NCBI GenBank assembly: GCA_963719425.1
Contig: OY970382.1
Location: 201,888 to 242,861, forward strand
Origin: an uncultured bacterium
GTDB lineage: Bacteria > Patescibacteriota > Minisyncoccia > UBA6257 > 2-01-FULL-56-20
Length of the DNA stretch: 40,974 nt
Direction: 5' to 3'
Numbering within the stretch: the stretch's first letter is position 1; each line of letters begins with the position of its first letter. The position numbers were made by a program, and so were the translations under genes. Positions 2,699-28,103 of this stretch are shown piece after piece. Under the pieces are notes generated by a model. The model had not been told where the DNA came from and made no database searches. It saw only the letters and a list, made by a program, of their open reading frames with translations.

Positions 2699-2776
2699 GC
2701 AGAAATTGTAGCACGATTTCGGCGCGATGTGGCGTGTGGTAGCGCGGGGACGGGACTCTGCGATTCTTCTGTGATT

Positions 2777-5574: not shown

Positions 5575-6456
5575 TTAAAACCATCCCTTGCGTTTGAAAT
5601 AGATCGCCATCACGATCATCGCGGCGGCCATGACGCCGGCCACGATCCAAAAGGCGCCCGGGAGACCTATGATGGGGGTGTCTTGCGTCCTCATGCTGAA
5701 GAGTCCGGCGAGGAGCACGAAGGGGAAGGTGAGGAACGAGAGCGCGGTGAATGTTTTCATCACGTTTGAAATTTTCAGATTCATCAGTTGGTTGTTGGTC
5801 TCCTCAAAATCAACGATAGTCTCGCGGTAGTCCTCCAGCTGGTTCACCACTTTCAGTTGGTCCCCGATGAGGTCGTTCAGGTATATTTCCGCATCGTCTC
5901 CCCAGAACTTTTTTCCTTTGGCAAGGAGTGAGCGGAGGATCGGCTCCTGAAGGCGCACGACGATGCGGTATTCCGACACGTCGCGCTTCAGGTACATGAT
6001 GCGGGCGAGGATTTCCTGCTCCTTCCCTTTGAAGATGTTCCGGCCGACACCTTCCACTTTTTCCCGGATGTGGCGCAGTTGCCGTTCTTCATAGGCGATC
6101 AGGTGCTCCACGATATGGCACATGAGCTCAAGAGAATTTTTTTCGTGCCGCACCGCAAAGTGATCCAGTGCTTCCGTGATTGGTTCGTAATGGACGGTAG
6201 CGACGGTATCCTTTGCGACAATGAAATCTATTTCCGTCCGCACCGATGTTTCATCATCTATATCGTACTTCGGGAAATAATAGACGAAGAAGAGATAGTC
6301 CTTATAAACCTCCGCGTGCGCCCGTGCGGAGGGGCCCTTGAGCTCCTCCACGATTACCGGGTGCAATCCGAACTTCTTCTTGAGCCATGCAAGGTCGCTT
6401 CTCGTTGGCCGTGCGATGTCGATCCATGCCACGCATTTGTTCCGCTCGGTATCCAT
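5575..6456 (-). CDS. CorA-family Mg2+/Co2+ transporter
   Basis: WIDI...GLHP N-terminus, NxVMKxFT, two C-terminal TM helices; FSMR in place of the canonical GMN. Confidence 0.85.
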   Translation of the reverse strand: MDTERNKCVAWIDIARPTRSDLAWLKKKFGLHPVIVEELKGPSARAHAEVYKDYLFFVYYFPKYDIDDETSVRTEIDFIVAKDTVATVHYEPITEALDHFAVRHEKNSLELMCHIVEHLIAYEERQLRHIREKVEGVGRNIFKGKEQEILARIMYLKRDVSEYRIVVRLQEPILRSLLAKGKKFWGDDAEIYLNDLIGDQLKVVNQLEDYRETIVDFEETNNQLMNLKISNVMKTFTALSFLTFPFVLLAGLFSMRTQDTPIIGLPGAFWIVAGVMAAAMIVMAIYFKRKGWF

Positions 6457-6463
6457 TGAAAAT

Positions 6464-6472
6464 ATTGTACCA
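6464..6472 (-). promoter_or_regulatory. Extended -10 promoter of corA-like gene
   Basis: Minus strand TGGTACAAT, 7 nt before the ATG at 6456. Confidence 0.55.
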
Positions 6473-7210: not shown

Positions 7211-7777
7211 ATGGCGGAGGAAGCGCAAAAAAACGGGAATCAGAATGGCACCGCGGAGCCGAGTACGGCGGAGCAGGCGGAAGAGATAACGCAAGCACCG
7301 AAAGCGGCGCCGAGCGAGATTGACGATTTGAAAAAGAAGCTCGCCGAGGCGGAAAAGCAGCGCGACGAATATCTTGCGGGCTGGCAACGGGCGAAGGCGG
7401 ACTTCATCAATTACAAAAAAGAGGAATTCGCGCATCTGGAAGAAGTGGCGCGCTACGGGAGCGAGGATTTGATCGGGGACCTGATTACGGTGCTTGATAA
7501 TTTTGATCTTGGGCTGCGGGCGCTTGAAAAGAAGGGTGCCGTAGAAAAGGGAGTTTACCTCATCCGGTCACAGATAGAAGATATTTTAAAAAAACGCGGA
7601 CTTACAAAGATAATCATTAAGCCGGGCGACCCATTTGACCCCGCCGTTGCCGAAGCGATGACCGAAGTAGAATCAGAACAATCGCCCGGAACGGTCGTGG
7701 AAGAGATAGAGCCCGGATACAAATTACATGACAAGATATTGCGGGCCGCGCGCGTCATTATAGCAAAAGGTACATAA
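7211..7777 (+). CDS. grpE: Nucleotide exchange factor GrpE
   Basis: QRAKADFINYKK, FDPAVAEA, GYKLHDKILRAARV. Confidence 0.95.
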   Translation: MAEEAQKNGNQNGTAEPSTAEQAEEITQAPKAAPSEIDDLKKKLAEAEKQRDEYLAGWQRAKADFINYKKEEFAHLEEVARYGSEDLIGDLITVLDNFDLGLRALEKKGAVEKGVYLIRSQIEDILKKRGLTKIIIKPGDPFDPAVAEAMTEVESEQSPGTVVEEIEPGYKLHDKILRAARVIIAKGT

Positions 7778-23659: not shown

Positions 23660-23689
23660 TTGACAGGGCGCTTGCACTACAGCTATAAT
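23660..23689 (+). promoter_or_regulatory. 16S rRNA promoter
   Basis: TTGACA-18-TATAAT; boxA-like CGCTGTTTTACAA at 23710-23722. Confidence 0.8.
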
Positions 23690-23734
23690 AGAACCCGTGC
23701 AGAAATGACCGCTGTTTTACAACTGAATAGCAGT

Positions 23735-23757
23735 AGAGAGTTTTTTAGTTGTCCCAA
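23735..23757 (+). other. 5' strand of the 16S processing stalk
   Basis: Pairs over 23 positions (three G:U) with 25437-25459. Confidence 0.8.
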
Positions 23758-23855
23758 TTTATTCTTTTTTGGCAACGTTTTTGAGTGATCAAACAATGTT
23801 GTATGGAATTCGTTCGAACCCCTCTATAGAGGGTTTGAATGAAGATTCAAATCTT

Positions 23856-25405
<1,550 letters not shown>

Positions 25406-25436
25406 TAAGTCGATAACGCGCGGTCGCGCGTTAAGG

Positions 25437-25459
25437 TTGGGGCAACTAAAAAGCTCTTT
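25437..25459 (+). other. 3' strand of the 16S processing stalk
   Basis: TTGGGGCAACTAAAAAGCTCTTT is complementary to 23735-23757; preceded by hairpin AACGCGC-GGTC-GCGCGTT (25415-25432). Confidence 0.8.
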
Positions 25460-25488
25460 GCGAATGTGATACAATAAGCATTACGAGC

Positions 25489-25863
25489 ATGCCGCAGGGA
25501 AAGAAAGTTATGGTGATTGAGGACGACAAGTTCTTGTCTTCCTTGATCAAGGCGCGCCTTGAAAGGGATGGCTACACGGTCATCCAGGCGTTTAACGGCG
25601 ATGAGGCAATCCAGTCGTTGCGGAAAGAAAGACCGGATCTCATTACCCTTGACCTCGTCATGCCGCGCGTGACCGGATTTGAGGTATTACAGACGATCGC
25701 TATCACGCCGGGACTTGAAAAAGTCCCCGTCGTGATTCTTTCCAATCTCGCACAAGAATCGGATGTGGAGAAAGCACGGCAGCTGGGCGCGCAGGAATAT
25801 TTCGTGAAGGTGAAGATTTCCATTGATGATCTCATTGGAAAGATAGAATCGTTGGCACAATAA
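25489..25863 (+). CDS. Single-domain response regulator (CheY-like receiver)
   Basis: IEDD, LDLVMP phospho-Asp, ILSN, FVK; TGATACAAT upstream. Confidence 0.9.
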   Translation: MPQGKKVMVIEDDKFLSSLIKARLERDGYTVIQAFNGDEAIQSLRKERPDLITLDLVMPRVTGFEVLQTIAITPGLEKVPVVILSNLAQESDVEKARQLGAQEYFVKVKISIDDLIGKIESLAQ

Positions 25864-25864
25864 T

Positions 25865-26167
25865 ATGATTACAGAAGATGTTATGAAAAGGATAAAGCCC
25901 GGAGCCAAGGTCCGGGTGTATGAAGGCAAAACCCCCTTTGAGGGGCTTGTGATCGCGCGCAAGCACGGTGCGGAAGCCGGGGCGACCTTCACGGTCCGTA
26001 CGATCGTTGCGGGAGTCGGCGTGGAGAAAGTCTATCCACTGCACTCGCCCGCTATCCAAAAAGTGACGGTCGTTGTGAGTCCAAAGAAAGTGCGTCGTTC
26101 AAAATTGTATTTTGTCCGCGGCATCTCCGGCGCGCGCATCCGAGCAAAGCTCGACGTATCGGTGTAA
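25865..26167 (+). CDS. rplS: 50S ribosomal protein bL19
   Basis: PGAKVRV, FEGLVIA, TFTVR, GVEKVYPLHSP, VRRSKLYFVR. Confidence 0.93.
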   Translation: MITEDVMKRIKPGAKVRVYEGKTPFEGLVIARKHGAEAGATFTVRTIVAGVGVEKVYPLHSPAIQKVTVVVSPKKVRRSKLYFVRGISGARIRAKLDVSV

Positions 26168-27489: not shown

Positions 27490-27569
27490 CGGCCGACCCT
27501 GTCAAACTATGGACTTAAAATAGGTTCGAACTTGGTTCGCTGTCCCGCACAAATTGGTATGATGGAAGG

Positions 27570-28103
27570 ATGCAGGAATACGTGACGGAGGCCGTCGTGT
27601 TGGAAAAGGAGCCGATTCGGGATTTTGATGCGCGGTATTCGTTTTTTACCAAGCGGTTTGGGAAATTGAAGGGAAAGGCGACGAGCGCAAGAAAGATTAC
27701 GTCCAAGCTTGCGGGGCATCTGGAACCGGGCACGCTCGCCAAGGTGCGCTTTGTGGCGCGGAGCGGCGAGAACGGCAACGGCGTGCAGATCGCGGATGCG
27801 TTGAAGTACGGGAGGCTTGCCGCGTCGCCGACCGACCTCCATTTTTTGAACAAGATGCTTCCGGAAGGGGAGCCTGACACCGCGCTGTGGAATGAACTCA
27901 CGCGGGAGCGCAGGGAGCAACGCTTCCCTTGGGGAAATGTGCTGCGAATCCTCGGCTGGGATCCGCGAGAAGCGGTTTGTGAAGAGTGCGGCAAGGGCAG
28001 AAAGGCCGCCGCGTTTTATATCCCGAAGCAGGAATTTTTCTGCGCCCCATGCGCTTCAAAATTGGAGCGGGATGCGTTACTATTACTAGGAGATGAGCCC
28101 TAA
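27570..28103 (+). CDS. recO: DNA repair protein RecO (short)
   Basis: OB-fold EAVVL..D....FFTKRFGKL..ARKITSKLAGHLEP, C4 motif CEEC..CAPC; TGGTATGAT 6 nt upstream. Confidence 0.88.
   Translation: MQEYVTEAVVLEKEPIRDFDARYSFFTKRFGKLKGKATSARKITSKLAGHLEPGTLAKVRFVARSGENGNGVQIADALKYGRLAASPTDLHFLNKMLPEGEPDTALWNELTRERREQRFPWGNVLRILGWDPREAVCEECGKGRKAAAFYIPKQEFFCAPCASKLERDALLLLGDEP

Follow-up and report, generated by a model that had tools for sequence, protein, structure and literature searches.

Is the 16S rRNA gene of this locus, in which the anti-Shine-Dalgarno (anti-SD) core CCUCC cannot be found, the working 16S gene of its organism, and, if so, by which signals are start codons recognised there? 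The gene lies in a stretch of 40,974 nucleotides (in the following referred to as the window), where it occupies positions 23856-25406 on the forward strand as a complete copy (Rfam RF00177, SSU_rRNA_bacteria; 1345 bits, model positions 1-1533). Very probably, the gene is authentic and functional and provides the sole 16S of a Parcubacteria/Paceibacteria (CPR) bacterium, in which the anti-SD core has been replaced by the A/U tail CAAUUAAACU and translation starts independently of the Shine-Dalgarno (SD) interaction.

The absence of an anti-SD is a familiar feature of mammalian mitochondrial 12S rRNA, where it goes together with leaderless mRNAs. Among bacteria, 16S rRNAs without anti-SD occur in some Mollicutes and insect endosymbionts, according to the mention made in PMC9297842 of Lim et al. 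2012 and Amin et al. 2018. The original prediction for this locus had placed the loss among those established for a few lineages, mostly of small-genome bacteria, which is correct but too general, for the loss has already been published for a subgroup of Parcubacteria. Tsurumaki, Saito, Tomita and Kanai 2022 (RNA 28:1041; PMC9297842) found the CCUCCU motif to be missing at the 16S 3' end in this subgroup, observed that the anti-SD-less group overlaps with the group lacking ribosomal protein uL1, and concluded that SD helices probably do not form in these bacteria. Their anti-SD detection rate for Parcubacteria is 48%; no mechanism is given, and the term 'leaderless' is absent from the text. 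Our literature search found no paper linking the anti-SD loss of Parcubacteria to leaderless genes. The genome studied here belongs to the same CPR/Parcubacteria clade and displays the same loss of CCUCCU together with the same absence of uL1: Pfam family PF00687 (Ribosomal_L1) is unmatched in the complete genome and was matched in all 14 control genomes, so that loss of uL1 and loss of the anti-SD co-occur in it. With the anti-SD loss already published for the group, this genome is one more well-documented case. Added here to the account of Tsurumaki et al. are the order-wide replacement tail, a negative test for a new anti-SD and a promoter signature at position -12.

The 3' end of the gene is well defined. 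Helix 45 forms a 10-bp stem (25370-25379 with 25384-25393, forward strand) closed by a GGAA loop (25380-25383), is fully paired in the Rfam alignment and, when aligned with its kin, displays a compensatory change from A-U to U-A, as expected for a working rRNA. Past this intact helix, the 16S reads GGAUCAAUUAAACU in place of GGAUCACCUCCUUA. The 3' tail itself (25394-25406, forward strand) is GAUCAAUUAAACU, where the family consensus is GAUCACCUCCUUU, and within it AAUUAAAC (25398-25405) takes the position held by CCUCCUUA in other bacteria. The Rfam 3' alignment and direct reading agree in this, and they bear out the original prediction that the anti-SD tail is lacking after a well-formed helix 45. 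Its further statement that no CCTCC precedes the 3' processing stalk also stands, as a string search found none in 25300-25470; the sole pyrimidine run of at least five in that interval is CTCTTT at 25454, within the processing stem. The start of the stalk, previously placed at 25437, was 3 nt off: RNAcofold pairs 25434-25461 with 23733-23760 (both forward strand) over 28 consecutive base pairs to form the pre-16S processing stem. Since this leader-trailer stem starts at 25434, the mature 16S 3' end must precede that position.

Upstream of the gene, direct reading reveals a near-consensus promoter, TTGACA-N18-TATAAT (23660-23689, forward strand), which indicates that canonical sigma-70-type boxes are used by the organism. 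Downstream of the gene follow a receiver-domain gene (25489-25863) and rplS (25865-26167), as identified by Pfam. The trailer between tail and processing stem holds a G+C hairpin of 8 bp (AACGCGCG-GU-CGCGCGUU; 25414-25431, forward strand), shared, of the genus members compared, by this genome and G002 only; it is missing in two others, which points to a recent insertion. The 23S gene is unlinked and lies ~190 kb off at G000:C1:31615-36288; its span of 4.67 kb probably includes insertions. An LSU-like fragment of 90 nt elsewhere in the genome (322382-322471) was discarded, having scored 49.9 bits, below the cut-off, and not having been reproduced by cmscan of the locus.

The replacement of the anti-SD is shared far beyond this genome. 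Matches to a 48-nt pattern with CAATTAAAC at its end were obtained in 67 species-level genomes, the named ones being Candidatus Harrisonbacteria, Liptonbacteria, Paceibacterota and Parcubacteria. These names, together with genome size (0.5-1.3 Mb in the relatives, which often carry large 16S insertions, and 888 kb here), place the organism within CPR/Parcubacteria. Rfam, applied regardless of the tail, located the 16S of 18 relatives; AAUUA follows helix 45 in 16 of them, AAUUAAAC in 11 and CCUCC in none. Similarly, CCTCC is absent within 24-34 nt of the universal 16S sequence GTCGTAACAAGG in all of 151 genomes sampled evenly across the order, and the order's assembled 3' ends (~99) comprise 56 with AAUUA and 28 with AAUUAAAC, the remainder being other A/U-rich tails. 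The lone row reading CACCUCC among these ends was dismissed, as it stems from a MAG with three different 16S ends and hence from a mixed bin. Across many families the tail is conserved (AAUUAAA is kept) while the adjoining 3' spacer is variable. Judged by these alignments, the loss of the anti-SD is a lineage trait that extends over the order. In the wider class, about one third of ~100 tails are canonical, roughly half are without a pyrimidine core and some appear partly decayed (CAUCUCC, UUUCUCC, CACUUCU), proportions in line with the published figure of 48% detection in Parcubacteria (PMC9297842). A particular arrangement was seen in G189 (G189:C1:389300-391600), where the 16S tail reads GGAGUUUCAAUUUUAAUUUU and no CCUCC follows for ~280 nt; ~100 nt downstream of that tail lies ACAAUUAAAG, which resembles the tail of the order studied here.

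With the anti-SD core replaced, the ribosome cannot form an SD helix, and the genes of this genome carry no sign that it does. We examined 774 predicted genes of at least 80 aa, which cover 86% of the genome and were obtained with a dicodon model, the first start codon of each ORF being taken, so that the starts are crude. SD 4-mers occur at -20 to -4 in 10% of these genes versus 13% in far-upstream and coding control windows, and their positional profile is flat (13-18 per position versus a background of 13.8). The same script applied to 50 kb of E. coli returned 63% versus 13%; the method is thus able to see SD motifs where they are present. Strong SD 5-mers amount to 8.1 per position at -16 to -7 versus 5.9-6.7 elsewhere in this genome, and a search for a second, SD-using class of genes met AGGAG or GGAGG at -18 to -5 in just 26 of the 774 genes, without a difference in GC. 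Of the two components of canonical SD-led initiation, a 16S with CCUCC and a purine-rich motif that precedes the start by 5-10 nt, neither was found in this genome. The original prediction had inferred SD-independent initiation and had pointed to grpE, dnaK, dnaJ and nusB as core genes with A/T-rich upstream regions devoid of SD; the identities of all four are confirmed by Pfam, their upstream regions are indeed without SD (dnaK has an A/T-rich leader, and upstream of grpE a TATAAT starts at -14), and the genome-wide counts, together with the lack of pairing between tail and start regions described below, support the inference for the genome at large.

Two readings of the tail would nevertheless leave room for a docking of mRNAs by base pairing. 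According to one, the tail is a misassembly, the end of a pseudogene or a chimeric join, and the normal anti-SD of the working ribosome is encoded elsewhere. The rRNA regions of MAGs are frequently misassembled, and in a search of sequencing runs even the best DNA runs contain just 0.32 of the sampled words (RNA runs at most 0.12); four metatranscriptomes compared with 24800-25700 yielded only short conserved-16S pieces of other organisms, none of them extending past 25419. However, the assembly consists of one contig (887,956 bp) at 98.7% completeness, in which the 16S gene and GTCGTAACAAGG each occur once. A stray rRNA-like 3' fragment with CACCUCC was sought in the whole genome and is absent from it, and other 16S copies with CCTCC, the presence of which would have contradicted the original prediction, are likewise absent from this complete, single-contig genome. 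The compensatory change in helix 45 also speaks against an artefact, the leader-trailer stem encloses the 16S gene precisely, and the genome offers no SD motifs that a ribosome with a normal anti-SD could read. Above all, 67 species-level genomes that were assembled independently carry the identical tail, which recurs in no fewer than 12 families of the order, and with the same tail in dozens of independently assembled relatives a misassembly is very unlikely; we assign almost no probability to this reading.

The other reading regards the tail as a replacement anti-SD, such that the conserved AAUUAAAC pairs with an A/U motif (e.g. UUUAAUU) near the starts and docks mRNAs as CCUCC does. The conservation of the tail next to a variable spacer would be in keeping with such a function, and TTAAT and TAATT are commoner upstream of genes than in control windows. 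The duplex energies decide against it: the real tail reaches a mean best duplex energy of -2.35 kcal/mol in upstream, -2.31 in far-upstream and -2.32 in coding windows; in a first test shuffled tails bound the upstream regions better in 58 of 60 cases, and windows from -30 to +175 as well as the leaderless subset gave the same result, with the real tail performing worse than 37-40 of 40 shuffles. Moreover, the excess of A/T 5-mers is explained by -10 boxes (TATAAT, ATAAT and TATAA being the top k-mers), and TAATT and TTAAT have no positional peak. As pairing is not enriched in upstream over downstream or coding windows, we rejected a new anti-SD and consider it highly improbable. Hybridisation of the real tail to upstream regions accordingly reveals no genome-wide complementary motif, and the prediction that initiation is SD-independent is left standing.

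A partner within the 16S itself was also considered. The universally conserved GUUUAAUU at 24797-24804 (forward strand), which presumably corresponds to E. coli positions 954-961 beside helix 31, is fully complementary to AAUUAAAC in the tail (25398-25405), and the chance of some 8-mer match within 1.55 kb is ~2%. No covariation of tail variants with variant GUUUAAUU targets was found among the relatives compared, so this pairing was set aside, and the match may be a coincidence.

A positive signal, unseen by the original prediction, appears instead at a fixed distance from the start codons. In bacteria, leaderless genes can be recognised by a TANNNT that precedes the start codon by ~12 bp (Zheng et al. 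2011, PMC3160421), a criterion that has been validated experimentally in Deinococcus (PMC12340547). Here, TANNNT starts exactly at -12 in 93 of the 774 predicted genes versus 10.9 per background position, a significant excess by which these genes qualify as TA-led; the extended -10 form TGnTAnnnT is found there 45 times (1.2 expected), and strict -10 boxes at -14 to -12 number 123 (11.8 expected). TATAAT is the most enriched upstream hexamer, and the upstream composition is poor in G between -13 and -1, with conspicuous T at -12, A at -11 and T at -7. The 93 genes selected for TANNNT at -12 are likewise biased at positions that took no part in the selection: the frequency is 0.59 for T at -15, 0.70 for G at -14 and 0.76 for a pyrimidine at -1, with A at +1. 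This pattern points to an extended -10 promoter that is complete and has the A of AUG as its start site. Boxed genes exceed the background by a net 19-20% of all genes, and a -10 box lies within 24 nt of the start in ~30% of them. A preference for AUG is also evident, as 81% of the candidate starts for which a box lies at -13 or -12 are ATG, compared with 40% of all candidates.

Several examples are found in the window. The T of the TA in the recO promoter TGGTATGAT (27555-27563, forward strand) is at -12 from the ATG at 27570, and the promoters of recR (TGCTACAAT, 2705-2713, reverse strand) and corA (TGGTACAAT, 6464-6472, reverse strand) are at -12 from the ATG at 2698 and at -13 from the ATG at 6456, respectively. 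Pfam profiles align from residue 1 (RecO_N), residue 7 (RecR_HhH) and residue 9 (CorA) of the products, which indicates that these three starts are correct. The grpE gene (start at 7211) is a further case of a leaderless-type promoter, while the receiver-domain gene behind the 16S has an extended -10 box, TGATACAAT (25467-25475, forward strand), and a predicted leader of ~7 nt before its ATG at 25489. From sequence evidence, -10 boxes at -12, and hence leaderless-type promoters, would be the signal that stands in for SD. In ~20% of genes (~150 of 774) the first T of an extended -10 box is situated 12-14 nt before the start codon, so that transcription should begin on the A of the AUG or within 1-2 nt of it; the resulting leaderless mRNAs would presumably be bound directly by the ribosome with initiator tRNA and IF2.

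The leaderless signal accounts for about a fifth of the genes only. In the unboxed genes, 40-nt segments at the start fold with a mean energy of -5.1 kcal/mol, compared with -7.9 inside genes, and the G+C content of the start regions is 0.44 versus 0.54 in the gene bodies. Stop-start overlaps of 4 nt, of the ATGA type, occur in 43 genes. IF3 and bS21 are present in the genome, the latter in an open frame of 144 aa (the Pfam domain has 55 positions), and the sole protein with multiple S1 domains is a bS1 homologue of 363 aa with three such domains. As suggested by composition and folding energy, leadered and operon-internal genes would rely on G-poor, A/U-rich and weakly structured starts; they would probably also depend on the short three-domain bS1 and could use stop-start coupling, i.e. 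termination-reinitiation, to which the 43 ATGA overlaps point.

Such features recall the Bacteroidetes, in which SD motifs are rare, start regions are A-rich, G-poor and unstructured, and CCUCC is retained but sequestered. SD-independent initiation in Bacteroidetes/Flavobacteria has reportedly been described by Baez and colleagues in 2019 and by Jha and colleagues in 2021. One may therefore ask whether a regime of this kind dominates here, with leadered mRNAs recognised through A-rich, unstructured leaders and bS1, and with the -10 boxes near the starts merely giving rise to short leaders. A correctly placed -10 box is missing in ~80% of genes, upstream regions are A-rich, G-poor and weakly folded, IF3 and a bS1 homologue are encoded, and TANNNT is also in excess between -15 and -20, corresponding to leaders of 3-8 nt. 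Yet a sharp peak stands precisely at -12, with 93 occurrences versus 41, 41 and 23 at neighbouring positions, and is accompanied by the pyrimidine at -1, the A at +1 and the strong preference for ATG, an arrangement that fits transcripts beginning on the AUG. The Bacteroidetes and this genome have the non-use of SD in common, but the anti-SD that is retained there is gone here and replaced by another tail. Dominance of a Bacteroidetes-like regime is thus improbable, and SD-independent initiation with leaderless-type promoters in about a fifth of genes is the reading that we follow below.

How closely does the -12 peak follow the loss of the anti-SD? It is present in two genomes of the same order with the same tail, and in other anti-SD-less lineages (G189, G248, G280 and G289; weaker in G245 and G251). 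The first four anti-SD-bearing relatives were without it, which is compatible with a simple rule by which anti-SD-less genomes are leaderless and anti-SD-bearing ones are not. This rule had to be abandoned after 13 more genome samples, since the peak is missing in the anti-SD-less G196 and present in the anti-SD-bearing G181 and G190 (weaker in G246); it is therefore not tied one-to-one to the loss of the anti-SD. The SD signal is equally uneven. Half of the 12 anti-SD-bearing samples (G257, G246, G314, G197, G214 and G190) have no SD enrichment although all six carry the canonical GGAUCACCUCCUUU tail, and are thereby nearer to the situation in Bacteroidetes than is the genome studied here; the anti-SD-bearing G236 has a strong SD peak (50 versus 7.6 expected). 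On the strength of the six unenriched samples, SD use appears to be generally low in the class, which fits a relaxed selection on the anti-SD.

SD-like motifs were also encountered on the other side of this divide. In G125 (G125:C8:100001-300000), a Harrisonbacteria-type genome of the same order with an identical tail, an AGGAG/GGAGG-type motif lies 5-10 nt before the start in 20 of 203 predicted genes. The G+C content of the motif-bearing genes is 0.576 versus 0.494 for all genes, and this higher value suggests that they were probably acquired; something in this lineage may, however, still be reading SD-like sequences. Similar peaks at canonical spacing occur in the anti-SD-less G189, G196, G248 and G245; there is none in the genome studied here. 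As to the order of events, it is conceivable that across the class Paceibacteria an SD-independent, leaderless-rich initiation arose first and removed the selection on the anti-SD, which then decayed repeatedly, and that in this order the tail was subsequently fixed as AAUUAAAC by a new role, be it as a protein-binding or processing site or in a transient pairing with the 16S GUUUAAUU during 30S assembly. We regard this succession as rather unlikely and put it forward tentatively.

The promoter signature has its closest counterpart in the leaderless, TA-led genes of Actinobacteria and Deinococcus-Thermus (PMC3160421; Cortes et al. 2013, PMC3898074; PMC12340547), which likewise have TANNNT ~12 bp upstream of the start, make up ~20% or more of the genes and prefer AUG. 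In those bacteria the anti-SD is normal and most of the other genes rely on SD, whereas here there is neither an anti-SD nor a detectable SD regime; the promoters in this genome are, in addition, mostly of the extended -10 (TGn) type, unlike those of the TA-led genes in the two groups. With Mollicutes, endosymbionts and mitochondria, the organism shares a reduced genome and the loss of the anti-SD. By contrast to them, it represents an unrelated lineage with 53% G+C and normal sigma-70 promoters, and its tail is conserved rather than truncated or degenerate.

The finding bears on the evolution of anti-SD loss and opens no new question in itself, but it confirms from a complete genome that a free-standing bacterial lineage very probably runs entirely without the Shine-Dalgarno interaction. 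It also provides a sequence-level picture of the likely substitutes, namely extended -10 promoters that abut the AUG, A/U-rich open start regions and stop-start overlaps. For annotation, this means that gene callers which score ribosome-binding sites will tend to misplace starts in such genomes. Likewise, when Parcubacteria genes are expressed in other hosts, or foreign genes in Parcubacteria, the absence of SD would have to be allowed for.
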